A DNA stretch of 52,194 nt, taken from contig JBHGNT010000210.1 in the NCBI GenBank assembly GCA_043228905.1, forward strand, positions 1 to 52,194. The letters are read 5' to 3'. Positions 14,831 through 50,558 of this stretch are shown here, in pieces; position 1 is the first letter of the stretch; each line of letters begins with the position of its first letter. Under the pieces are notes generated by a model that worked only from the letters and a program-made list of their open reading frames with translations, had not been told where the DNA came from and did not search any database. This stretch comes from Azolla caroliniana. Lineage: Eukaryota; Plantae; Polypodiophyta. A program made the translations under genes and the position numbers.

Positions 14831-15221
14831 TGTAAAGAATCGGATATGATTCTTGTGAAGCGGAAGAGATGTGAGTTATGTGTGTGTATGAGAGAGAGAG
14901 AGATAGTGAGAGAGACAAGGAATAATACACAGAGAATACGCAAGGTAAAAGTATATTAACAAAGGAGAAAGACTCAACTTAATACAAGGTGGGAGGAGGA
15001 TGCTTTATATAGTCACCCTCTCTCTTCATTAACTACAAGACTCATGGAGCATGGGGAATGTGAAAGCTCATAAGTTATGTGTCATAGAATATGATTCTAT
15101 GACTCATACTAAATGCTAGAATACAAAGAGGTGACATAATGGTGACTCTTGACCGTTGGAGTGTCTATTCACTCTCAAGGTGAGTTCACACACTAGACCA
15201 AGTTGAGCTTGATTCTCAACA
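14831..15221 (-). repeat. Copia-2 3' LTR (minus orientation)
   Basis: Reverse complement of 16653-17053 with few differences. PPT at 15222-15233. Flanked by CCAGG (14826-14830). Confidence 0.95.
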
Positions 15222-15487
15222 CGCCCCCTCAAGCTCAAGTCGGGTTGGTTTCAGACGGTATCTGAAATCCGCTTCGACTTGCGTTCCGGAGTTCGCGTTG
15301 ACTCGCGTTGACTCGCATTTATGCGGAGTTGCGGAATCCGTGCTCCAGCTTGCGTTGTGCGTAGTTGCGAAGTCTGCGCTTCGGCTTGCGTCTTTCTTTG
15401 CGGCTTTGCGCGGTAGATCGGCTTCATTGCGTGGTTGTGTAATCCACGCGTTATTGCGTAGTGTGCGCAGTTTGCGGAATCCACGCG

Positions 15488-16324: not shown

Positions 16325-16652
16325 AACAACAAGGTAGTGGTGGTGCTACTAGATTTTGAGAAAGCATATGACAGGGTATGTTGGAACTTTCTAGAAAGTG
16401 TGATGGGGAAACTCGGCTTTCAAGAGACATGGATCAAAGGCATTGCAGGACTTTATAGGAACAACAACAGTTGCGTTTCACTAGCAGGTGAAAGGGGCCC
16501 CTTTTTCCGAATATCCTGATCTGTACGACAGGGATGCCCACTAGCTCCATCCTTCTTTCTATTATACGCCGAAGCACTCTCTTGCTTTCTCAACTCGCGG
16601 TATCTCAACCTATGTGGTCTTCCCATACCTCATTCTCACCAAAGCATCCTGG
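16325..16652 (+). pseudogene. L1 RT N-terminal motifs (inverted relative to the rest of the LINE)
   Basis: LLDFEKAYDRVCWNFL..GF..W, SVRQGCPLAP. Ends in CCTGG and joins DIEFAND of the minus-strand fragment ending at 14830. Confidence 0.92.
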
Positions 16653-17053
16653 TGTTGAGAATCAAGCTCAACTTGGTCTAGTGTGTGAACTCACCTTGAG
16701 AGTGAATAGACACTCCAACGGTCAAGAGTCACCATTATGTCACCTCTTTGTATTCTAGCATTTAGTATGAGTCATAGAATCATATTCTATGACACATAAC
16801 TTATGAGCTTTCACATTCCCCATGCTCCATGAGTCTTGTAGTTAATGAAGAGAGAGGGTGACTATATAAAGCATCCTCCTCCCACCTTGTATTAAGTTGA
16901 GTCTTTCTCCTTTGTTAATATACTTTTACCTTGCGTATTCTCTGCGTATTATTCCTTGTCTCTCTCACTATCTCTCTCTCTCTCTCTCTCTCTCATACAC
17001 ACACATAACTCACATCTCTTCCGCTTCACAAGAATCATATCTGATTCTTTACA
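16653..17053 (+). repeat. Copia-2 5' LTR
   Basis: TG...CA ends, TATA (CTATATAAAG), preceded by CCTGG and followed by a PBS. Confidence 0.95.
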
Positions 17054-17212: not shown

Positions 17213-18802
17213 ATGAATACTCAAATGGGGAGCGCTCTCCCTACCGAGAAGTTGGATCAAAACAACTTCGCATCTTGGGAGTACAAGATGCACCAATACC
17301 TTGTCAGACAAGGCTATTGGAGCTACATCAAAGGAGCACATGAAGACCAACCTACCAAAGCGGCTCCCGGATACGCGACATGGGAGCAAGCCACAAGCCG
17401 CGTGATGTATTGCTTGGCGACATGTGTTCATGATCACATGTTCGGCTACATTCGCGAAGCCAAGACGCCGAAGGAGGCATGGGAAAATCTACGAAAGATT
17501 TTCGCGGCGAACACAACCGCAAGACGACTTCAACTCCGCCAAGAGTTGAACAACATTCAACAAAGGGACATGTCCATTACGACATACACCTCGAAGATCA
17601 AGGAGCTTTGCGATTCTCTCGGCTCAATAAGCGTAAATATTGATGATGATGAGATGGTTCAAATATGCCTCGGCAGCCTCACACCACGGTTCGGCACGAT
17701 GCGAACCACCGTTCTAGCACGGGAGAAATCTCCCTCCTTCTTCGAGCTCCAATCAATGCTATTGGTCGAAGAAAACCACGTGCGTACAAGGAGCAATGAG
17801 TCGGAAGGCCATGTGCTCTACACGCACCCAAACAGAGGAAGAGGACGCAGACGGTCGAGAGGCCGATTCGGCCAAGGACAAGGCGGACGAGGTCCGACCT
17901 ACGATAACAACTCCCAATTTCGGCCGCAAAACGGAAGCCAACAAGGAACCTTCGAAAGAAGGGGGAGCTTCCACTCCGGCCCGAGCCATCAAAACACAAC
18001 CGAAAGCGGATATTGCGGAAAGCTCGGCCACCACGAAGAAGAGTGCCGAAAGAAGATGCGTGAATCGGCTTCCACAAGCCGACAACTCACGAATTACGCG
18101 CACAATTCCGACTACGAAGAGTATAATGAAATGTATGGACACAACTTCGACTACGAAGATCGTGGAGGAATGTATGCAAACAACTCTAACCGTGGCAGAA
18201 TGTACGGGCACAACCTTGACTACGAAGATCGTGGCAGAATATATGCACACAATTCCGACCGTGGCGGAATGTTCATGATGAAACATAGAGCAAACTCTAT
18301 GTCGGCCTCTACCTCAACTCGTGCCCTCAATCCGGAGGACGTATGGTTGTTGACTCCGGAGCCTCAAACCATATGACATCCCACAAAGAATGGTTTCTCG
18401 AACTTCGAGAGCCGGAGCGACCCGGCTATGTCAAAACCGGAGATGACACTACGTACCCGATTCGGCACATCGGCAATGTTCCGTTCGGAAAAGAAGGTAA
18501 GCAAAATTACATTAAAAATGTCTTGCATGTACTCACCATTACGAAGAATTTGGTCTACGTTGGCCAAATTGTAGAGCAAGGGATGCAAGTTCGATTTAAT
18601 CAAGGCGGTTGCTTCATAAAAAAAGAGGGCTGACTCATCGCACGCGGACGAAGAGAGAGCCGAATGTTCATTCTCGACTCACACGAGATGAAATCGGCCA
18701 TGTTCGCAAAGGGCATGAAAGCCGACTCCGTCATAGAGTTGTGGCAAAAACGAATCGGCCACATCAATCTCAACAAACTCAAAGCAATGAAATTGAAAGG
18801 AG
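17213..18802 (+). pseudogene. gag: Copia-2 gag, protease and start of integrase (frameshifted, cut by the Gypsy insertion)
   Basis: EKLDQNNFASW, TPKEAWENL, degenerate zinc knuckle (YCGKLGH..EEC), VDSGASNHMT, LWQKRIGH. Confidence 0.92.
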
Positions 18803-19191
18803 TGTTGTCTGCCTGGCCGGACTAGCCTCAACACAGGTGTCTATCCGACACTTCTCCAAAGGGGTGGTAAGGAGTGGATGCTAGGTTACACGCGTAAGAT
18901 GATTACACTAAGCACAGACGGTAAAACAATACAAAGATACAGATAAACACGCAATAATTACTTTTGTATTACTTCCGTAAAGCCTTTACAAATCATCGGA
19001 TCCTTTTATAGGCATCCGGCAATGTTACAATCGGTGCGCTTAGGCAACCGGCATCCGAATCGGTCCGGATCCAGATCGATACAACTGTACCGGATCTGTC
19101 CCTCCGAATAATAATTATACTATTATTTACTTCCTATTATCCGATCCGACTCCGCCTTCCCACTTGTCCTTGCTCTTCTGATCGGTCAACA
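18803..19191 (-). repeat. Gypsy 3' LTR
   Basis: TGTTG...CAACA ends; TATA CCTATAAAAGG on the minus strand. Shares motifs (ACAGGTGTCTA, GACACTTC, CCAAAGGG, ACACGCGTAAGAT) with solo LTRs 20012-20423 and 35424-35859. Confidence 0.85.
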
Positions 19192-19241
19192 CATGGCACG
19201 CCCGTGGGAAAGTGCCTTGCACTTCGAATCCACTCCCGGCC

Positions 19242-22200
19242 TCATTCTTCCTCCAAAATATCGAGCACACTCTGCTCGAAGGTGTCAAGTGGTGCTTCTC
19301 CCTCCAACTGGTCCTTGCCTGCCTGGTCTCTGACCTCCGGTTGGGTTGGCTGTTCCGTAAAAATTTGCTGCTCCGGCTCTGCTTGATTCTGTGGTGCCGG
19401 TGCTTCCTCACCGCTCCGTCCGGGTTCTTCCTGTTCTCCCTCCGTTTCAGGCTCTGTTCTGTTACCAGTGTCGCTTTCTCCGGTCTCGACTGGTCGGCTC
19501 GGTGCGCCTTCTTCCTCTGCTCCGGTGTCTTCCGGTCTCAGCTCTTCTTCTTCTCCGGGATCGGTCTGCTCCTGCTCTTCTTGATTTCCTTCGAACGGAA
19601 GTTCTTCTTCGGGTATTCCTTGTCGGGGTTGTTCGGTGTCGGTTGGTTCAACTTCAGCCGGTCGCTCTCCCTCACTTATAGTGATTGGCGTCGTTCTTCC
19701 CTTGGCTTCCTGTCGTAACCGGTCCTGCTCGTATTTCTCCAACTCCAACTGAGTTGCGAGCTGCCCGTCATCCAACCTCTCTACCAACCCTCAGATTTCT
19801 TTGAGATGTTCTTCCGCTAAAGCGTAGAAATCCTCCGACAATTCTTCCCGAATGGCGACGATATTTTCTTCATCCATCTTGTAGAACTTGTCACCAGTCT
19901 TCCTCCGATTCTCGGCATCAGCTCGGAGTGTCTGCGGCTCGGCTGCCTGTTGTGACCACTCCTTCCATAGCTTTTCCGTACTTTCATTGATGCTTGCCTG
20001 AGCTCGGGTACTCCAGAGTGGGAAACGGAGAGCTAATTAAGTAGTAGGAATGTGGTTGTAATTAAGCTATGAGTGTGGACGGACGGACCGGAATCGGTAT
20101 GCCGTTCCGGATCCGGACCGATCCCGAACAGGTGCGGATGGCACCGTTTTGTAATACAGACCGGAAACCTATTTAAAGGCCCGGATACAATGTAATAGTT
20201 AGCGGTTAATTAATGAAAGCTTAAGCGTTGTTATATCTCTGTGTCAATTGCCGTTCTGTCTTAATTGTTATATCTTACGCGTGTTATGAAGACGATCCTA
20301 ATAAGTAACTTAACTAAGTCGGATTAAGCGTTGAAGTCTAATCCGGTTGCCGTAACACCCTTTGGTGAAGTGTCTCACATAGACACCCTGTGTTAGGCCA
20401 TTGTCCGGCCCGAAGAGTTAACACCTGACATGATGAGCTTGATCCGGTCAACCCCCGCCTTAGCATGCGCATAAGCTTCTTGCTTTTCCTTCCTTGCCCG
20501 TTTTATAATGTCAGCCATTATTTGAGCCTGGGCCTCGTAATCCGCTTTCTACTTTTCATAGGTACTTTGCAGTTTGTTGATCGTGAAGGTCGATCTTTCC
20601 TTTTCTTCATTCCTGATCTTGGTTAGATCCAGCTTTTCCCGCCTTAGCGCCTCTAATTCCTTCCTTCTCTCCGTCGCTTGGTTTATTTCTGCCGACAATG
20701 CTTCCTTTTTGGCACTGACCTCGTCCATTGTCTTAGCCAGGTCTAATCGGGTCTCTTTGAGCTGTTCTTTCAGCTTCTCTATTTGTCGGTCGTAGTCTGC
20801 TGCCCGTTTCTTGTTGTCCGACTCGGCCTGCTTGTGATCTCGGTAGCGTCAGTCGAAGTCCTCCGTCTTCTGCTTTAGGCGTCGGCTTACCTGAGCTCTT
20901 AACCGGTCGTCCCGGTCCTTCTGTTGTCGGAGTTCTTCCTGCAGTCGTTCAATCTCCTGCTCGGCATGTCGACGCAGTCGGTCCTTCTCCTTTTGCAGCT
21001 TCTCTTTCTCTTCTTGCAGTCGGTCATTAGTGGCTCGGCCTTTCCGGAGGCCTTCTTCCATTTTCCGTCTGTCGTCCTCCACCGCTTTCCGCTGCTCCCT
21101 TTCTTTTTCCCTTAATGCCTCCTGAGCTTTTAACTCCTCTCGTAAGGTTTCTATTATTTTTTCGGTCTCAGGGCCGGTTTGCAAGGCTACCGGTTCTGGT
21201 TGCTTCCTTGTTGTCCCGACCGGCTCGGTGACAACTTGTGCTTGTTGAATTCCTTCCCTTGCCTGCAACAGCTCCCCTTGCAATTCCTCGATCTGTGTTC
21301 GGAGCGTGACCAACTCCTGGGTTGCTGTATGCGTCAGATGTTGCCTACACGTTTCTTCTTCCTCTAACTGGTCCGCTACTCCCGATAACTGCTCCGAAAG
21401 CCATCACAGCCATTGTGGCTTTGTGCTTCCTGTGTCGGGGTAGCATTGCTCACTTCTACCCCTTAACTCAGGCTGTTTTTACGGCCTTTTCTCTGGCTCC
21501 GACGCTTGTTCATTCCTCTTCTTTGGGATGACCGGTTCTCTGAAGTCCGGCAAAACCGGTGTCGGTGCTGCTTCCCTCGGTACGGGTTCCGGTACTGCTT
21601 CCGCCCCGGCTACTGGAGGTGGTCCTTGCGCCCTCTGCTGAGTTTTGTCAATTGGTGGAGCCGGTCGTCTCGCCCGTCTCTCCCGACCTTGTCTTGCTGG
21701 GAGTCTTACCAGTGGTTCAGATGAGTCTTCTGTTTCAGCTTCCTCCTCCGGTGCGGCTACCAGACGGACCTTTTGTATAAAGAACTCTGGTTCCGGTTCC
21801 GGCCGTCGCAGCGTTATATTGATTGGTTTGAGCGCTACCAGTTCCTCCTCGGCCGATTTTCCTTTGCCTTTTCTTGCCAGTTTTGCCTTTGTTGCCGGTT
21901 CCTGTTGCTGTCGGGATGGTCCTTCCTCCTGCTGTTCTGCTTCTTCCTGGGTCCATCCGGGGGTGTGTTTCTCCAGGATATGTCGGCGCTTTGTGACCTT
22001 TTTCGGCGTCGTCTCCTTCCGACCTCTTTTCTTTTGTTTGATGGGGAGCACCGGTGGGACTAACACCGTTAGCCATTGTGCTATCCCGGCCCATGGCTTT
22101 TTTCCTTCCACAAGGTTCTTGATTGCCTCCTTCAATCCTTCGGTTATGAAATGGAGCCAGTCCACTTGTAATCCTTCGTACGTTGCAATTAAGAACGTTG

Positions 22201-22555
22201 CCCGGTACCTGGCTATGGCCGGGGGACGAGGATTCACGAATCCGTATTCCATCATGGCGCGGGCCACTTCTCCGAACAGCAGGTTCTCTCCGCCCTGTGT
22301 TCGGTACGCCTTGCTACTGATGGAATACTCACCGAAATATTCGAACAGGATTTCACTTGAAGGGTTTTCGATTGTTTGAAGTCCTCCTGCTTTTATCCCC
22401 GTGAGCGCCTGCACCGCTCCTTCCGTGATTTCTGATAAATCAATCGATGCTGCCGCCTGCTCTGGTTCTGCGTGTGGTGGAGCGTCGGCGATCCGCAACA
22501 ATCCTTCTAACCCGTTCTCCCTCATCCATTGGCGTGCCTCCTCCGACAATGCCAT
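19242..22555 (-). pseudogene. Extra ORF of the Gypsy element: globular N-terminus, Pro/charged linker, long coiled coil, acidic tail; disrupted
   Basis: ORFs 21479-22555, 20849-21313 and 19242-19787 on the same strand, between the integrase stop and the LTR. Interrupted by stops and by solo LTR 20012-20423. Confidence 0.75.
20012..20423 (+). mobile_element. Solo LTR (Gypsy-related), missing about 20 bp of its 5' end
   Basis: Near-identical reverse complement of 35424-35859. Ends TTAACA. TATA CCTATTTAAAGG. Confidence 0.9.
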
Positions 22556-25500
22556 TGGTTCGAATTCTTCTTCTGCTGTCTATTGTTCGGGATCGGGCTG
22601 TGTGTGCGCTGTGCGTCGGATCGCTCTTCTGTGCTTCAGCGCCTGTGTGTAGGAAAATTCTTAAAAAGTAAGTCCTTCGCAGGCCTGTGTCTTATATAGT
22701 GGCTTTTGCCTCGAGCCGCCCTTTTTCGTTTCCCGCGCATGTCCATCTCCCGCCATAATTAGTATGTCTTTTCTTGCTTGCCGCGTGTGAGTAACCTCGT
22801 ATGTCGGTGCCCACGTTCCATGCTTTAAATAGCAAGTACACGCACGTCCTCCTTTACTTCATGGCGCCTCTTCGTTGCATGGTGGCGCTCCCACCTCTTG
22901 TGATCTCCCCATCATTACTATGATTTTTTCTTCTTTTTTTTTTCTTTTTTTTTTTCTGTTTGTTTGGACCACGTCATTTTCTGGTCCCCCCCGATTTGTT
23001 CGGGTTGGTTTGCGCTGATACCGGATCCTTCTGTCGGTTTTCTAGGATAGTCTTTGTCAGTATCGGTGTTGGTTCTTCCTCGATCCGGATATCTGCAGCA
23101 GCGTCTGTCGGTGTCGGTTCTTCCTCGGTCCGGATTTCCAGGTTTTGCTTGAACGGGTTGGCTGGCATATTTCCCTTATACGGCTTTAGCCGAAACCCAT
23201 TTGCCCATTTACCGATGACTTCCCCAGACAACGTGCCGAGCTGATACGACCTATTGTACTGCTTGGTGATCCAGAACGGTCCGGTCCACCGAAACCGCAA
23301 CTTTCCCGGCATGTTCCCCATTCGTGTCTGGAACAGTAGCACCGGTTTCCTGACTTTGAACTCCTTTTCGTTGCCACGCCGGTGTCGGTCCACGAAAGCT
23401 TTTCTCCTCCTTTGCTCCAGTTTGAGTTGTAGTAAGCTGGCTATTCGGTTTTCTTCTAATTCCAACAACGTCGCCAGCCGAATTCGTTCAGACTCCTTCT
23501 CACTTAAGCGCTCCTTTACTTGGATCCGTAAGCTGGGGATTTGGAACTCTACCGGCATGACCGCTTCTAAACCGAATGCTAGTCGGAACGGGGTTGTTCG
23601 GATGCTGGTTTTGTACGTTGTTCGGTACGCCCATAGCGTGCTCTGCAACTTCGTATCCCAGTCGGTCCGGTTCTCGTTGACGATTTTTCGTAGGATGTTC
23701 TGCAGAGTTTTGTTCGTCGATTCCGCGAGTCCATTGGCTTGAGGGTAGTAGGGAGTACTCCTTTTATGTACCACCGCGTAAAATGCAGTCAGGCTTTCTA
23801 CTACCTACCCGAGAAAGTGTCCTCCTTGGTCACTTATAAGCTCGATCGGGCATCCATACCGGCACCATATGCACTCGTACAGGAACTTTGCCGTGGACAC
23901 GGCCGTGTTGTCCCGTAAGGCCTTTGCTTCTACCCATTTGGTGCAATAGTCGGTCGCCACTATGACATACCGATTTCCGGTTCGCATTGCCGGTGGCTTG
24001 AAGGGACCGACAAAGTCCAAACCCCACTTTTGAAATGGTTCCAATGGCAAGACCGGGTGGTGTGGCATCCGGGCCTGCTCCGTAGGTTGGCCCAGTCGTT
24101 GACACAAATCGCATTCTCTGCTATACTTCACGGCATCTTTTAGGGTGGTGGACCACCACAGTCCGCTCTGCCATATTTTCCGAGCGGTTGCGTCGCCGGC
24201 ATAATGCCCGCCGGCAATTCCATAGTGGGCTTCCCTGAGGACTAGATCCTTCTCATCGCTCCGCACTGCTCGTCTCCAGATGCCATCTGCCCCCTTGTGA
24301 TAGAGGGTGTCTCCAACCAAGTAGAAATGTCTGCTTCTTACTGCTACCCTTTTCCTTTCATCGCGGTCCATGTTCTCCGGGGGTACTCCGGTGCTCAGGA
24401 ACTGATGCATCTCAGTTAGCCATGTGTCTTCATCGGCTACCGTTGCATCCGTTGCCGGTTCCGTCGTGATCCGGAACAACTCGGCGTCGGGGAACACATC
24501 CTGGACGCCGTCCCCTGCTTCTCCGGATTCGAGTCTGCTTAGGTAGTCCGCTACTACATGCTGCGCCCCGGGTTGGTGGAAAATGTCGAATTCAAATTCC
24601 TGTAACAGTAGTGTCCATCGTGCAATTTTTCCCGTCAGGGATGCCTTCGAGACCAGGTAGAGTAGTGTCGAATGGTCGACATGGAAGGAAAACTTCCTTC
24701 CGAGCAGATAGTGCCTGTACTTTGTGACACTGTACACCATTCCTAATGCCTCGCGTTCCGTCGTAGAGTAGTTCCGTTCGGCTTTTGAGAGTTTCCGGCT
24801 TGCGTAGTACACCGGCCGGTACCATTTCGGCTCCGTGAGTTGCATCAGAACGCTGCCGATTGCTACGTCCGACGTGAAAGCTTTTACTCCAATCCGGCGG
24901 TTGCACCACCGGAGCTTGCGACAACATAACCTTCAACGCTTGGTAGGCTTTCTCCTCCGTCTCCGCCCATAGGAAGGGTACTCTGTGTACAGTGGTATGC
25001 AAAGGTGTAGCGAAGTCTGCGAGGTGCCGTATCATCCGGCTATGCCACCTTATTTGGCCCAGGAACCGGCTTAAAGCCTTTGCGTTATTTGGTGCTGGTG
25101 CCTCAAGAGTCGCCTTTACTTTATCCGGATCTACCGCGATTCCTTCCTTACTCACCACGTGCCCTAGTAAGTTGCCGCTTGCCACTCCAAAGACGCACTT
25201 GGCCGGGTTCAGACTCAACCGGTACTCGCGGCACTTCTCCAAGCACAGCCGGAGGTGATCGAGATGCTCTCAGTTGTCGTGAAGATCCGTCACTACGCGC
25301 GGATCGTGAGGCGGAACCGCCGGGGTTCTGGACCAGAAGGATTTAGAGTCGATACAAGCTTTGGCGAGAAAGTACTTAAGATAGATTGGAAAAGAGAGAA
25401 GTTGAGATTACACGATCAATTTGATAACGAATTTCTTCCTCTTAATTTTCATAAAAAAAAAAAACCATGTTTTTCTCCTCCCCCTTCCCTCTTTTATAGA

Positions 25501-25678
25501 TGCTCTCATGCATATGATGCATGTGAGGGTACAAGACATGCATAAATTGCATGTTTGCCATTTGGCGCTTAAGTATTACATGTGGTGCATGCTAACCATG
25601 TCACTCATTTTAGCACTCATGGATGAGAATTTACATGTAAAAGTACAATGATAGAAATATAATTTCAACTAAATACTA

Positions 25679-25740
25679 TGGCTTAATGGTAAGCCATTTG
25701 ACTCTTAACTTGGAGGTGCAAGGTTCGAATCCATACTTGC
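25679..25740 (+). promoter_or_regulatory. tRNA-derived Pol III internal promoter (A box and B box), tRNA-Lys(CTT)-like relic
   Basis: A box TGGCTTAATGG (25679-25689), anticodon-loop-like CTCTTAA (25702-25708), B box GGTTCGAATCC (25722-25732). No intact acceptor stem. Confidence 0.6.
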
Positions 25741-25774
25741 CCTCCTTGTATATGTAAATATGTATATATTTTTT

Positions 25775-25922
25775 GACGCCGGATGCCGACGCCGGATACC
25801 GGTGCCGCCGCCGGATGCCGCCGCCGGATGCCGACGCCGACGCCGCCGTCGCATGCCGCCGCCGGATGCCGACGCCGGATTGCGGTCGGATGCCGTCGGA
25901 TCACCGGCTCCATCGCCGGTCC
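25775..25922. repeat. GC-rich degenerate minisatellite (GCCGGAT/GCCGAC/GCC units)
   Basis: Direct reading, inside the 25275-26298 element. Confidence 0.9.
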
Positions 25923-28049
25923 GGTTTTGGTTGGCCAAAACCCTTTACGAGTAGCTAGCCACCTCCACTCTAAGTTCAAGTTACCTTGAACTCTCTATGC
26001 TCCACACATAGACACAAAGATAATATCTTTTGCTCCACCTTATATATGATGAGAGCCGTATTTGTCGTGCCTATGTGGGATATCTCACAATTTTCTCTTT
26101 TCTTTTCACAAACTTTATACCCTCATATCTTGACATTTAGTTGTCCATTTCTCGTGTAATAAAGTGCATTCGAAACCTCCATCATTTTGTACTTAGATAT
26201 TAAAAATGTTATCTTCACAATTATTGTATTACATGATTCATACTCGATTTTGTACGTTTTATGGGATTTTCACACTATTGCCGAAAATCTTCACGACACC
26301 GTGCCGGCTGTAGACCGCGAAATCGTCAAGGAAGACCTGCATAAAACCGGGGATATATTCCCTGAAAATTTCCATTATTATCCTTTGAAAGGTCGCTGGA
26401 GCCGTCTTTAGTCCGAACATCATCACGACCGCGACGAACACTCCCCATTCCGTAACGAACGCTGTCTTCTCCTGGTCGGCCGGGTTCATTCGTATTTGGT
26501 TGTAGCCGCTAAATCCATCCAGGAAGCTGTAAACTTCGTGGCCGGCTACCGCATCTAACACCCCGTCCGTAAATGGTAGTGGAAATGCATTGGTCACTGT
26601 TGCGGCATTTAGTTTTCGGTAGTCCACGCATACCCGGATTTTGCCGTTCTTTTTCGGGACCACCACTATCGGACTCAGCCAGGTTGCCTGCTTGACCGGT
26701 CGGATAAATCCGACCCGGAGGAGCTTATCAATCTCCTCCTTCACCTTCGCCGCATAATTCGGATTCATCCGGTACCTGCGTTGAGCGATCGGTTTCGTGT
26801 CCGTACTTAGGTGAATTTGGTGCTGATAGAGCTGGGGGTCCAGCCCTCGCATGTCTTCGTACGACCACGCGAACACATCCTTGAAGTCTGTTAATAATGC
26901 TATCATTGCCTTCTTTTCTTCCTTCGGCAATTCCTTTGCGACATTTACCGGTCGGGGCTTGTTTGTTGTGCCGAGGTCCACCTCCTCTAGTTGGGATGCT
27001 TTTACCCTCTGGGATATCGTCATTTCCCTCTCTAGGGATTCCTGCGCTTGTCGCAATTCCCGGATCGCCGCTTGGTCCGGTTCGTCCGGCGTCGTGGTGT
27101 ACGGTTCTATTGCCGCCGTGATATCCACCTCAAATAGTGGGACGATTCGTGGGTGTTCCTCAAGGTACCGCTCGACTTCTTCGTCCGGTAATCCCTCCAA
27201 CATGTTGATGCTTTCCGCATACAATGGAGTTGCTTCCTTACTGGCGATCACCCGTGGTTGCGTCGTTACTCGTACCTTTGTTTTCCCTCGCCGGAATGTG
27301 ATAATGTTCTTTTGCCAGTTCTGCTTGATATGCGCCGTTCGCAGCCATGGTCGTCCTAGCAGTAGGGGGTACGCGCCTTGTACATTCAGCTGCAGCACCA
27401 CGACCGATATCCGGAATACGTGGCCTCCGATCGTTACTTCCAAATCCCAGATAAGCCCGGTCGGTCGGACTGAGCTGGTATCCGCCATGCGTAACCAGAA
27501 GGGGCATGGTTCCCATTCCCAGATGCCCAAGTTATCGCATGTCTGTCGGCTGATGACATTTACCCCGGAGCCTCCGTCAATAGTCGTTCCAGCAATTTCC
27601 TTTCCTTTCACGATTGTCGTGATCGTCGGGCTACTTGTATCGACCACCGCTGGTCCTTCCTCCGGGTTGGAGAAGAATGTCGGTGCTGGCGTTGGCTTCG
27701 GTTTGCTCACGGATGCCTGTAAGTCTGCGGTAAACCGTGGCACCAACTATAGTAGCCGTGCTAACGGCAGCACGATTTGACAGTCCTATAGCGCTTGCCA
27801 CGTCGGGTTTTCTCCTGGCTGTATGATTTCTTCGTCTTTTGGCATATTTTGGTCTCTTACTTCTACCGCATTCTGTTCATTGGCCTCCTTGATCCATTGC
27901 GCCGCTTGTTTTCTGATTGCCTCCTGGGCTTCCCACTCTGCGGTCTTTCCCTTTGACCGGGTTGTGACCTGTTATACTTTTGTTATTTCGGCTGTAACCA
28001 TGTTGACTGTCGGCTGCTTGTCATTGGTTTTGCTTGGGCATTGGTTACT

Positions 28050-29745
28050 TTAATGGCCCTCCTTACGACAGTAATAACAGTACACCTTGTGACTGTTGCT
28101 CGTTTCTCCTTTGTCCCCGGTTTGGAGGGTGGGTATACTTCGGCGGTCGTCTTCGGTTGTTTGGTTATCCGGTACCGATACCGGGTTGTCATTCCTTGCT
28201 GCCTCCCGACGTTCCTCTCTTCGGAAAAATCCACGCTTCTGATTCCGTCGGAAATTTCGGTTCCCTTGTCGCCTCTCTTCTCTGCGTCGTTCGTATTCCG
28301 GGGATTCGTCTCGGTCGTACGGGTCCCGGGGGTAGCTATCTCTGCGTTTCTCCTCTCGGTCATAGTTATCACGTCTTCTATCAGCGTATCTGTTACCGCG
28401 TTCGCGTTGGTAGCGGTCGTCTCTCCGGAATCGATCTTCATCCGGGTTCTGATTGCGCGGTTCTATGTGTCGAACCACTGCTGCCTGCCGATTTAACAGG
28501 TTATATTCGCATCGGTCCGTTGTATGGGCTCGAGAGTTGCAGATCATACATTGTGTCCGCAGGGTGCAGTCTACCGTTGAGTGGCCCGAGTTTAGGCATG
28601 TTGTGCATTGTAAGGCCTGTCGGAACCTCAGGTCTTCCTCCTTCGGGAGTGCCCGGTGTAACATCCCCATCGACAAGAAGGAGCTAGTCTTGTCCATTTC
28701 TAAGACCCGATCAATAACTTGGTCCATTGTGCTGGTGCGGAATTCAAGGACTCCGCACATTGTTCGAAGTGGCTCTTTCAGCGCGGCCAAAAAGACTGCT
28801 TTGGCTTCGTCTTCGGGTGGTGCTCTCGTCAGTTGGCTGTGTAGGGTCTGAAACCGAATGATGAATTGTGGCACAGTCTCGTTCTCTTCCTGCCGGGTAG
28901 TGTAGAACTGCCCGACCAATTCCCTTTGCTCAACTTGTCTGTGAAAAAGCCTGAGGAATTTGGCCTTCAAGGCATCGAATGTGGCAAAGCTGCCCGGTAA
29001 GTGCTTTGCGTGCCATCGGGCCACCGGTCCTTCTAAGGTCATGCCGAATTCGGCGACTTTGGATCGTTCGGCTTCGGGCTCCGTCAGTCTTTGGGAGACA
29101 TGGTTGGCTTCCCATGTTTGGAGGAATGCGTACACGTGTGCCTCCGCATCGGGCTCATCCCAGTACTTTGGGTATGGGTACGGCATCGTGTCGTCCAACT
29201 GACTCTCCTGCTTTCTCCGCTCTCTGTCCGCTGTTGGCGTTGGTGTGAGAACCTTTGGTTCCTCCGCGGTTGGTGCCGGTATCCGTTACTTCAGTTCCTC
29301 CGCGGGTGTTGCCGGTGTCCGGTCCTTTGGTTCCTCCGCGGGTGTTGTCGGTATCTGCTCCTTCGGTGCCTTCGCGGGTGTTGTCGGTATCCGCTCCTTC
29401 AGTTCCTTCGCGGGTGTTGTTGGTATCCGGTCAGCCTCCCTCAGCGATTGCCGGTCACCGAACTCCAAGGTTATTTCTTCATCTGGCTCCGGTGTTACTG
29501 AGTCTTCCGACCCCTCTTCCCCCAGGTCGTTTGGTGTGTCGTGACTGCTTTTATACCGGGATGCAACGCTTCCGTCGCTTTCCGACTCCGCCTCAAGTGT
29601 TGCGAATGCTTCGGAGTCCCCGTCGCCCCCGGCGAGCGTTTGTAGTATCGTTTCCGCCTCTTGCAGGCTTGTTATGCTACTGCCTTCGTCGGGGACTTGC
29701 AGAACCCGGAACTGCAGTGCTTCTTCTGCGACAATACTTGACCAC
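28050..29745 (-). pseudogene. gag: Gypsy gag (5'-truncated) with N-terminal tandem peptide repeats and zinc knuckles
   Basis: Retrotransposon gag-like LEGPVARW..F.ALKAKF..F, Q.ENETV..F; CTTCLNSGH..C, CMICNSRAH..C, CYYCRKEGH. About 39-nt repeats encoding EEPK/RIPTTPA at about 29257-29430. Confidence 0.9.
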
Positions 29746-32749: not shown

Positions 32750-33313
32750 TGATGAGAAATATGCGGAATAATCTCCGGCCACAACCGAAGCGTAGATCAC
32801 TTGATGACAATCAAACACAGAAGAAATGGGAATGGAGGTAAGTACACAAACAGAAAGAGAATACACAGGATGTTAACGTGGAAAACCTTGAGAGGGAAAA
32901 ACCACGGGAGTCTACAGACTCCAAACTATCACTATGTCAAGGAGTACAATAGGGAGTACAAAGACAATGAGCTCTTGCTCACAATCTTCACCTGGCGGCG
33001 GTTACAACAGAGACATGCTCTGTATCGCTCTCTCTCTCTCTCTCTTAGTACAGTCGTTACACCAATAACACTATACAAAGATAATAACAACAACTATAAT
33101 AATAATACACACTGTTTGGCCTAGGTCACATTTATACTAATATGACATTAGGACTATTTACAGATATAGCCCCAATGGGCTCTTAGAAACATATCTACAT
33201 ATATGTCCCTTCATCCGGTGAGAGGTTCTCACCGGGCCTGCAACATTCGGTTCTCACCGGGTCTTCTGATGCCGGGCCTTCGTATCCCATCCAGAGGGAC
33301 TGAGATCCTAACA
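32750..33313 (-). repeat. Copia-4 3' LTR
   Basis: TG...CA ends; matches 38489-38630; followed on + by AACTCCCCCTTCAC (PPT complement). Confidence 0.9.
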
Positions 33314-35423: not shown

Positions 35424-35859
35424 TGTTAAATCTTCGGGCCGGACAATGGCCTAACACAGGGTGTCTACGGGAGACACTTCACCAAAGGGGGTTACGGCAA
35501 CCGGATTAGACTTCAACGCTTAATCCTACTTGGTTAAGTTACTTATTATGATCGTCTTTCATAACACACGCGTAAGATATAACAATTAAGACAGAACGGC
35601 AATTAACATAGAAAGATAACAACGCCTAAGCTTTCATTAATTAACTGCTAACTATTACATTGTATCCGGGCCTTTAAATAGGTTTCCGGTCTGTATTACA
35701 AAACGGTGCCATCCGCACCTGTTCAGGATCGGTCCGGATCTGGAACGGCATACCGTTTCCGGTCCGTCCGTCCACACTCATAGCGTAATTACAACCACAT
35801 TCCTACTACTTAATTAGCTCTCCGTTTCCCACTCTGGACTCCTTTGCCGGCCGGTAACA
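35424..35859 (-). mobile_element. Solo LTR (Gypsy-related) in the Copia-4 integrase
   Basis: TGTTA...TAACA ends; TSD CGTGT/TGTGT (one C-to-T change). Removal restores PLDGDT-PQKVW. Confidence 0.92.
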
Positions 35860-48900: not shown

Positions 48901-50245
48901 AGTCATAGATCTAAATTGAAGTGCTATTCCAGGTGCATTTATACTCGATATTAAGAGAATTATTGGGGAGGTTGGCCAATGCCCAAGCACAAAATAGGTC
49001 CAAACATGAGATTAGTTTCTTGTAATAATTTGCGATCTCTCACTGTTTGTTAAGACAAGAATAGGGGAGGGTAGGAGGAGAGACAAATAGATTGATTTGT
49101 CATATTATTGCCGCCCATGATGACCCCCATGACTATGGCCACCCCTCAAATAAGTGGGGATCGAACCCGAGTCAAATAAGCGAGGAATGCATTCGAGCGA
49201 GAAAATAGAGAGAAATAGAAAAAAAAGAAACAAATACATACCTCAGAGTGGTGGCAAATAGCAGATGTGCAATCACCGAGAAGCGACAAGGAGCAACGAG
49301 TAGTGAGTGTGCTGGGAGCAATGGGCAACGACCAAGGAATAGGGAGTAGGAAGCGAGAAGAAGGAGCAGGAAGAAGGAAAGCAAGAAAAGAGAAAAGAGT
49401 GGGAAAAGAGAAAGAGGGGGGATTTGGGAATTTAGAAATGAAACATTGAAAGCATAGTTATTAGTCACGACTCACTACTCACATTATACATAATACATAT
49501 ACAGTTATACTTTTATAAAATGTACATACTACAATGTACATTATAATAGTATATGTCTTTGTAGTATCATGTATGTACATTTTATGGTATGTACATATAC
49601 TACAATCTACAATATATATAGTACATATTACAATATTAAATATACTATATATAATATTTATTATGACATTATACAATGTCATATATATATGACATGGAAA
49701 ACAAATTTTTAGCATGTCATTTGACTTGTATAAGTTTTGGGCGCCTTTCACATGAAAAATGAAAATTGTAAGTTTTGTTATACGCAGTGCTCGGCCACAA
49801 CCGAGAAATAGGATTAACTTTCAGAAAACAGGAATTACAAAATACACGAAGATAATGGGGAGAAGAGTACACAGGATATTTTACGTGGAAAACCCTAAGT
49901 GGGAAAAACCACGGGAGTCCTCAAACTCCAACTATCACTATATGCAGAGATGTACAATGATGAAGCTACAAGGCAACAACCTTGAGCTCACAGTCTTCGC
50001 CACAGGCGGCGGTAATACACTGAGGCAACGACCTCTTCGTCTCTCACACTCTCTCGGCTGCTCTCACTTCGCTCCCTCTTCGTGGAAAACAGAAAATGAG
50101 CAACAACAACATAAAACTGTTTGCCCTAAGTCATATTTATACACATATGACTTTTGGGCTATTTACAAATATAGCCTCAAGGGCTCTTGGCAAACATATT
50201 CACAAATATGTCCCCGCATCCGGATCTCTCTCCGGGTACATTCGT

Positions 50246-50490
50246 CATCCGGCTCCGTAACCGGGGTCTTCAGCATCCGGCTCCGTAACCGGGGTCTTCA
50301 TCATCCGGCTCCGTAACCGGGGTCTTCATCATCCGGCTCCGTAACCGGGGTCTTCAGCATCCGGCTCCGTAACCGGGGTCTTCATCATCCGGCTCCGTAA
50401 CCGGGGTCTTCATCATCCGGCTCCGTATCCGGGTACTCTTTATCCGGCTTCATGCCGGGTACTCTTCATCATCCGGTTCCGTAACCGCAA
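50246..50490. repeat. 28-bp tandem array in the U3 region of the Copia-5 LTR
   Basis: Unit CATCCGGCTCCGTAACCGGGGTCTTCA(G/T), about 7 near-perfect copies plus degenerate ones, with no spacers. Confidence 0.93.
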
Positions 50491-50558
50491 CCGGGCTTGC
50501 CGTCATTCATCTCCGGACATCCCATCCGGAGGGACCGAAATCCCAACAAACTCCCCCT

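Follow-up and report, generated by a model that had tools for sequence, protein, structure and literature searches.

A Gypsy retroelement family with a tRNA-Arg 3′-end copy in the place of its polypurine tract

Results and discussion

A family of Gypsy retroelements, one broken copy of which lies in the window (the whole 52,194-nucleotide stretch of Azolla caroliniana DNA analysed here, contig JBHGNT010000210.1), lacks a polypurine tract (PPT) at its 3′ LTR and carries in its place a copy of a tRNA-Arg 3′ end. Comparison of the sequences of family members confirmed that the loss of the PPT is a family trait and not a private mutation, a conclusion that holds under each of three mechanistic readings. 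We lean towards the reading in which a host tRNA-Arg would prime plus-strand DNA on the minus-strand cDNA, with tRNA likely starting both strands and the PPT abandoned in favour of a symmetric reverse transcription; the same leaning covers the claim as a whole, including that this is a high-copy Gypsy lineage of land plants.

Anatomy and coding strand of the element

Remnants of plant Copia, Gypsy and LINE elements lie nested in one another across the window. Pfam profiles and open reading frames placed gag, PR, RT, RH, INT and a long extra ORF of the Gypsy element all on the minus strand and in Gypsy order, from position 29732 down to 19242. Gag with an N-terminal extension occupies 28050-29732, and the protease and the RT N-terminus (26259-27746) are split by an insertion of about 1 kb (at about 25280-26298) from the RT C-terminus, RNase H and integrase (22974-25269), a segment with a frameshift and a stop and with neither aRH nor chromodomain. 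The extra ORF (19242-22579, minus strand) belongs to no Pfam family, and weak matches under the cut-off (NleF_casp_inhib, TcpS and T3SS_basalb_I) were taken as noise. It is broken in the window, being interrupted by an LTR in the opposite orientation (20012-20423, plus strand) whose first 21 or so nucleotides are replaced, and forms a single open frame of 917 aa in L065, a relative with its 5′ end kept, and of at least 1003 aa in L068. The Pfam domain order of the window recurs in L065, in a frame of 1944 aa.

The 3′ LTR (18803-19191, minus strand; 389 nt, TG...CA) sits in a Copia integrase region and belongs to what we call subfamily A. A TATA-like box, CTATAAAAG, lies about 180 nt from its sense start; such a box was found on the sense (minus) strand only, both here and in the LTR of the sister subfamily B, and none was found on the opposite strand of either. 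Since the box and all coding regions share the minus strand, 18803-19191 is the 3′ LTR, as had been proposed, and the sense sequence preceding it ends in CCA-TG. The other related LTRs of the window, at 20012-20423 and 35424-35859, belong to the sister subfamily; the latter is a solo LTR (35425-35859 as a feature, minus strand) within a Copia integrase, with flanks ACACA/ACACG that match at 4/5 positions. The window copy can be matched to L065 as far as 29732, next to the remnant of a Copia LTR, and no further, which means that the 5′ LTR and its primer-binding site (PBS) are absent from the window copy, again as anticipated.

A tRNA-like sequence at the 3′ LTR

Read on the plus strand, the CA that closes the LTR at 19191 is followed by CA (19192-19193), by TGGCACGCCCGTGGGA (19194-19209) and by AAGTGC-CTT-GCACTT (19210-19224), exactly the arrangement of 16-mer, 2-nt distance and hairpin that the original prediction had described. 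In sense orientation (minus strand), 19194-19209 reads TCCCACGGGCGTGCCA and matches 16 of 17 nt of a tRNA-Arg 3′ end with one base missing; it would act like a PBS on the minus-strand cDNA and stands in the place of the PPT. The 2-nt spacer between its CCA and the LTR (19192-19193, minus strand) is TG in sense. Behind the motif comes a 13-nt insert (19210-19222, minus strand), which folds into a hairpin of 4 bp with AAG as its loop and is predicted to loop out of a tRNA duplex. The tRNA match continues past it to 19233 with T-loop and T-stem sequence (19223-19233, minus strand; GTGGATTCGAA in sense, GTGGGTTCGAA in L056 and L063). Between the motif and the stop of the extra ORF (19242-19244, minus strand) lie 32 nt, close to the 30 nt first estimated.

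The sequence before the 3′ LTR had been called not purine-rich, and this was borne out: in the window and at 13 related loci, purines made up 0.53 of the last 15 nt, and no purine run in the last 30 nt exceeded 4. No PPT was found at either internal LTR edge of the relatives, in either orientation, and it was likewise absent from L034, in which the tRNA-like site itself carries a deletion. A purine run at the end of the extra ORF, 45-60 nt away, was rejected as a PPT, since it is interrupted in subfamily B and lies at too great a distance from the LTR edge, which is fixed. Ordinary purine tracts precede the 3′ LTRs of Copia elements in the same window.

Junctions in related copies

Metagenome contigs were searched with a motif common to the three related LTRs of the window, which gave 69 loci; 11 of these showed no LTR similarity and were dropped as chance matches, leaving 58 family members. 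The loci come as collapsed contigs of a few related assemblies, some of them duplicates, and show junctions rather than independent insertions. Upstream of the LTR, the contig continued into element-internal sequence at 14 loci and into unrelated flanks at 19, and was too short at 25. The tRNA-like 16-mer stood 2 nt before the LTR in 13 of the 14 loci reaching this 3′-LTR junction, the exception being L034 with an 11-nt deletion within the site. Downstream of the LTR, 19 loci had internal sequence, 33 had unrelated flanks and 5 were too short, with L036 set apart as having the motif described next but little internal sequence. Of the 19 loci with internal sequence, 18 (one of them with a C-to-T change) have a sense PBS-type TGG motif, TGGCGACCAC, at a distance of 6-7 nt behind the gag-side LTR, and the remaining locus, L023, carries a deletion.

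Both internal LTR edges of the relatives, which the original prediction had proposed to compare, could accordingly be read together: a sense TGG PBS before gag and a tRNA copy before the 3′ LTR. The TGGCGACCAC motif leads into gag on the same strand in L065, L003, L022, L040, L047, L067 and L068, and pol or the extra ORF runs into the tRNA copy and then the LTR in L054, L063, L068 and L008. The order of the element, as assembled from these relatives, is LTR, 6-7 nt, TGGCGACCAC, gag-pol, extra ORF, tRNA-Arg copy with hairpin, 2 nt and LTR, with one coding strand. No single copy with two LTRs and a target duplication was present among the family loci. At 5′ and solo LTRs, unrelated flanks directly abut the TG of the LTR.

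When four public DNA runs with three organism labels were mapped on 18700-19400, the bins covering 19180-19227 were among the deepest in all four, and none of the 40 run differences listed (81 more being unlisted) fell within 19187-19228. In three of the runs, the TGGCGAC motif could be read from loose ends at the opposite edge of the LTR. Among viral contigs there was no relative of RH-INT, a single 30% RT match and no match to the junction pattern.

Conservation of the site and of its hairpin

In the window, the 16-mer occurs once even when 3 mismatches are allowed; since 17 of 100 shuffles also matched at that tolerance, this count alone says little about chance. The case against chance comes instead from the comparison of subfamilies. 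Between A (the window) and B, the pol proteins are identical at 707/833 positions, fourfold sites at 114/307 and LTRs at 268/370, and the 16-mer and its spacer are the same in both, with 11 of the 13 loci equal to the window letter for letter and two showing one transition each. At the fourfold rate, the probability of 16 identities is about 1e-7, for a segment that was picked after the fact but by position. Such identity across subfamilies with saturated synonymous sites argues against a chance resemblance. Subfamily C, represented by one copy on the other strand of L057, reads GGGCGTGCCA, again with a 2-nt spacer and with a hairpin behind the same end of the extra ORF, though its LTR and the letters of its spacer (AA) differ from those of A and B. 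The part corresponding to the T-loop varies: it is bulged in B, differs by one base in the window and has decayed in C.

The 4-bp stems of the hairpin are GTGC/GCAC in A, GTAC/GTAC in B and GGGC/GCCC in C, so that two of the four pairs are changed on both sides, and 95% of cells pair. None of 500 shuffles reached the pairing or the covariation score, and 51 of 500 reached two doubly changed pairs, in a comparison comprising three subfamilies. Folding of the 80-nt region as a whole is weak support for a structure: it was not clearly beyond that of shuffles (z from -0.04 to -2.2), and RNAalifold picked another structure, without double changes. A longer helix, GGCCGG with the LTR start, was dropped because it is absent in subfamily C and also has no double changes.

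The corresponding tRNA

A scan of prokaryote genomes with a pattern built partly from the motif, of which only the Arg identity is informative, gave 55 matches; 41 of these overlap no tRNA call, and 14 are tRNA genes, all of them tRNA-Arg. Each of the 14 has one more base than the element between CCCAC and GGGCGTG, at the passage from T-stem to acceptor strand, matching the single 1-nt gap noted initially. ARAGORN found no tRNA genes in the window, and in the 58 family loci only two tRNA-Lys genes, both in L007.

With a bacterial tRNA-Arg(UCU), L081, standing in for that of the host, the last 30 nt of the tRNA were predicted to form 27 (window), 29 (L056) and 27 (L054) pairs with the minus strand, in a duplex that loops out exactly the 13-nt hairpin. 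The predicted energies, for which RNA:RNA parameters were applied to an RNA:DNA hybrid and our own shuffle routine was used, were -47 to -51 kcal/mol compared to shuffle means of about -24, a level reached by 0 of 300 shuffles in each case. For subfamily C, the duplex had a broken pattern and -38 kcal/mol.

Mapping of the four host runs on L081 yielded, in every case, contigs that cover its last 30 nt, with 0-3 differences. Loose ends lead on to an anticodon arm with TCT in each run, and a few to a D arm that we take to be eukaryote-type. The deepest of the tRNA-matching host contigs include the TGG and sit after LTR-like ends, which marks them as element-borne copies. Read from contigs and loose ends rather than from a whole gene, a tRNA-Arg(UCU) type is present in the host DNA runs. 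Where a normal PPT in relatives, an unconserved motif or a lack of any matching host tRNA had been named as outcomes that would count against the idea, the family members had no PPT, the motif was conserved and the host runs contained the tRNA-Arg(UCU) type.

For the PBS at the other end, the first 12 nt of TGGCGACCAC equal an ERV9 PBS, labelled Arg or Trp in a passage of a vertebrate paper (PMC4724089). Apart from that passage, a literature string search returned only primers and unrelated text, and the supplement files covered by a search for plant tRNA or PBS strings contained none.

Proposed priming mechanism and alternatives

In the mechanism towards which we lean, sense RNA would be packaged, and at the TGGCGACCAC site a first tRNA would start the minus-strand DNA. 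Once strand transfer has taken place, RNase H would clear the RNA upstream of U3, so that the minus-strand DNA would present a complement to about 27-29 nt of tRNA-Arg(UCU), comprising the acceptor 3′ strand, T-stem and T-loop. A host tRNA-Arg ending in GGGCGUGCCA would then anneal as the plus-strand primer, with the 13-nt hairpin looped out of the duplex, and its CCA end would be extended, so that the plus strand would begin 2 nt before the TG of the LTR. A 2-nt overhang of this kind is usually trimmed by integrases. RNase H would finally remove both tRNAs. As the internal site would never be copied from a tRNA, nothing but selection would preserve it; the fixed one-base gap and the insert are in keeping with this. 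The abutment of unrelated flanks to the TG implies that the primer of the second strand must end within a few bases of it, which is where the CCA ends. What the sequence shows is the anatomy; from it we infer the annealing and priming, the packaging of a second tRNA and the trimming.

A tRNA paired to DNA is a substrate of RNase H, which counts against tRNA priming, as does the unexplained packaging of a second tRNA. No second packaged tRNA would be needed if the element's own tRNA-like RNA were the primer, surviving RNase H with the help of its hairpins, being cut just after the CCA and then extended, as a PPT made of something other than purines. This is the main alternative, but we hold it to be rather doubtful. 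It gives the same 2-nt geometry, and GTGGG and CCCAC of the sense RNA can pair into a stem like that of a T-arm, with the covarying hairpin enclosed; moreover, the extra A of subfamily B lengthens that stem yet bulges the tRNA duplex, which suits a structural role. This last point and the RNase H sensitivity of a tRNA on DNA are its strongest arguments. An RNA that is paired to its own DNA copy would, on the other hand, have little reason to be colinear with a tRNA through the T-loop, or to carry its insert exactly at the loop-out point, and it would copy a different tRNA end than the one fitting the sense PBS. Nor did the 3′ motif have a partner in the element's own RNA, where the longest sense complement was 7 nt (-14 to -16 kcal/mol with the PBS region), which speaks against an acceptor stem in cis or self-priming. 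The original prediction had left the choice between a tRNA or tRNA-mimic primer and a packaged genome antisense to gag-pol. The comparison of both LTR edges favoured its first branch, with a PBS upstream of gag in addition to the 3′ motif. Its second, by which the 2-nt-spaced site would be the minus-strand PBS and TGGCGACCAC would prime the second strand, is disfavoured and in our view highly improbable. The 3′ site does have the more usual PBS spacing (2 nt compared to 6-7) and the longer tRNA match, but a long spacer is not unique, since near-perfect complements of tRNAs also occur in other repeats of the host, at about 5 nt from LTR-like ends. The TATA-like box lies on the sense strand only in both subfamilies, and two full-length transcripts would be required. 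The gag-side LTR has no plus-strand PPT: read in antisense, it lacks a purine tract (purine fraction 0.6, longest run 4-5), so dual tRNA priming would be needed anyway.

It is very unlikely that the motif serves some other function (packaging, dimerisation, a second tRNA contact in the style of Ty3/gypsy, or a small-RNA decoy) while the plus strand starts by an unrecognised route. Ty3 and Drosophila gypsy do have tRNA contacts at the 3′ end, that of gypsy being non-priming, according to passages of PMC5371799 and PMC1635307, and the sense RNA of the element also pairs partly with the tRNA (-31 to -36 kcal/mol, a value free of shuffle control). The known 3′ sites are, however, complementary to the tRNA on RNA, and those elements keep their PPT, whereas the motif found here is identical to the tRNA end, has the CCA and, in three subfamilies, holds the position of the primer with an unvarying distance of 2 nt. 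The prospect that a chimera, inversion or mis-assembly has joined the 5′ LTR and PBS of one element to the body of another is slimmest of all and largely refuted. The window copy, nested and broken, has lost its 5′ end, and in the metagenome contigs repeats are collapsed, but the same junction recurs in the window, in 13 loci and in four runs, and single contigs span both the passage from extra ORF or pol through the motif to the LTR and that from LTR through PBS to gag.

PPT priming is treated as a fixed step in the replication of LTR retroelements and retroviruses, and annotation tools score elements by their PPT; a successful lineage without one means that this step is replaceable. Host tRNA priming of both strands would be a new way of copying a retroelement. 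If a tRNA primes, the reverse transcriptase would extend it on a DNA template before destroying it, which bears on primer selection by RNase H and on the origin of the two priming steps. As the tRNA and the element's RNA differ by the 13-nt insert and one base, a primer of either kind could be told sharply from the other.

Comparison with known systems

The element has gag followed by PR-RT-RH-INT between direct LTRs, as in Ty3/gypsy, with the LTR junctions taken from relatives, and a tRNA PBS lying downstream of the 5′ LTR, which is present in relatives and deleted in the window. No chromodomain follows the integrase (Pfam Chromo), and no second RH domain (aRH) was detected in L065 or L068 at E 0.1. 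The native RNase H has four acidic residues, D, E, D and D, in its motifs, as judged by eye. With its aRH lacking and its native RH not degraded, as far as the domain sequences tell, the element is not Tat in the REXdb sense. Its domain make-up fits the aRH-less Tat Z1/Z2, of which it is a candidate member: in the passages of Biryukov and Ustyantsev (2023, PMC10508981) concerned, these are GAG-PR-RT-RH-INT elements without aRH, with an undegraded native RNase H, and occur in ferns, mosses, liverworts and gymnosperms. Those passages contain no mention of PBS, PPT or primer, and the terms PBS, PPT, primer and tRNA do not occur in the main text of PMC13468544. In a quick RT tree, built without labelled lineage references, the named relatives that came closest were those of Adiantum, with 55-60% over the RT core, Riccia, with 54-57%, and Pinus, with 46-52%.

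In the full-text literature covered, chiefly outside subscription journals and Repbase reports and including passages of PMC11963269, no account turned up of a PPT being replaced by a tRNA site. The REXdb non-chromoviruses (Athila, Tat/Ogre/Retand, Phygy and Selgy) resemble the element in their lack of a chromodomain, a length of about 10 kb and a long extra ORF at the 3′ side, as given in passages of Neumann et al. (2019, PMC6317226), where a tRNA-Arg PBS is common in Ogre, TatIII and Retand and a tRNA-Trp PBS in Phygy and TatI. Athila has a tRNA-Asp/Asn PBS; the PBS of the element matches, in its first 12 nt, the Arg/Trp-type motif of the vertebrate passage (PMC4724089). The 4-bp NCGN target duplication of Phygy was not recovered, only 3 of 13 upstream host flanks ending in NCGN (by eye); LTR insertions in the window suggest a target duplication of 5 bp. 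In the self-priming Tf1 and Tcn1 the site pairs with the element's own RNA, a pairing that the 3′ motif does not offer.

In canonical Ty3/gypsy elements and HIV-1, a tRNA at the PBS and an RNase H-resistant PPT serve the two strands, as set out in passages of PMC5371799 and PMC13191261. The element shares with this scheme the TG...CA LTRs, the gag-PR-RT-RH-INT order, a TGG-type PBS after the 5′ LTR and a primer position next to U3, but holds in the place of the PPT a CCA-ending copy of tRNA-Arg that is complementary to the tRNA only on minus-strand DNA. The bipartite or double PBS of Ty3 and Drosophila gypsy comes close in having a second tRNA-related site near the 3′ end of the genome; in the passages describing it (PMC5371799, PMC1635307), these 3′ sites have their complement in internal segments of the same tRNA, at the level of the RNA, and a PPT is present. 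The 3′ site of the element, in contrast, corresponds to the 3′ end of a different tRNA, in the opposite polarity and at the primer position.

The extra ORF and repeats within the window

The Gypsy family carries a sense extra ORF of approximately 900–1100 aa, which lies at 19242–22579 in the window and at L065:450–3203 and L068:3319–6330 in two of the metagenome loci of the family. No Pfam family was matched by this ORF, and the nine homologues found for its N-terminal part are all unnamed metagenome proteins. Within the window copy, the ORF is interrupted at 19997–20428 by an LTR of the sister subfamily. CCTGA flanks this LTR on both sides, and 10 different bases stand in place of its first ~21 nt. 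At another metagenome locus, a distant Gypsy pol (L020:153–2288; ~27% identity) was located upstream of an extra ORF and LTR of subfamily B, an arrangement that could represent a nested insertion, a chimeric contig or a recombinant.

The RT of the window's Gypsy, which belongs to subfamily A, is split directly past its catalytic motif by an insertion of ~1 kb (25280–26298). The ends of this insertion are rich in AT, and a GC-rich repeat of 13 nt lies inside it (25769–25880). Elsewhere in the window, two inverted copies of ~400 nt each (14831–15222 and 16652–17053), 97% alike and 1.4 kb apart, are probably oppositely oriented Copia LTRs. A Copia LTR contains a tandem array with a 28-nt unit (50213–50492), which is missing from the related LTR near 33220.

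Other loci of the family

Family LTRs with a tRNA site or PBS were also found at L031 and L045, where there was no match to the family's proteins; these loci are possibly non-autonomous derivatives that have retained the priming sites. One recombined double LTR, with a B-type part fused to an A-type part, is common to three contigs (L052, L055 and L064), and in L007 two tRNA-Lys(UUU) genes (550–622 and 811–883), 188 nt apart, adjoin a family LTR end.

Putative priming sites and the 5' junction

Comparison of the host sequencing runs with a bacterial tRNA-Arg(UCU) gene (L081:145–228) showed another host repeat with a near-perfect complement to at least 45 nt of this tRNA, including both the CCA and the anticodon arm, ~5 nt past an LTR-like end. 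This complement may represent a PBS of unusual length or the ancestral form of the Gypsy 3' site.

At the 5' junction of the Gypsy family, the 20 nt counted from the TGG of the sense PBS are identical in subfamilies A and B, and this PBS lies 6 nt from the CA of the LTR in subfamily A and 7 nt in subfamily B, so integrase or RT would have to trim a longer overhang there than at the other end. A small hairpin follows 5–6 nt after the sense PBS, in the L065:9150–9215 region and at other 5'-junction loci, reading CTGCA-AAG-TGCAG in subfamily A and occurring as variants in subfamily B, and thereby mirrors the arrangement at the family's own 3' site.
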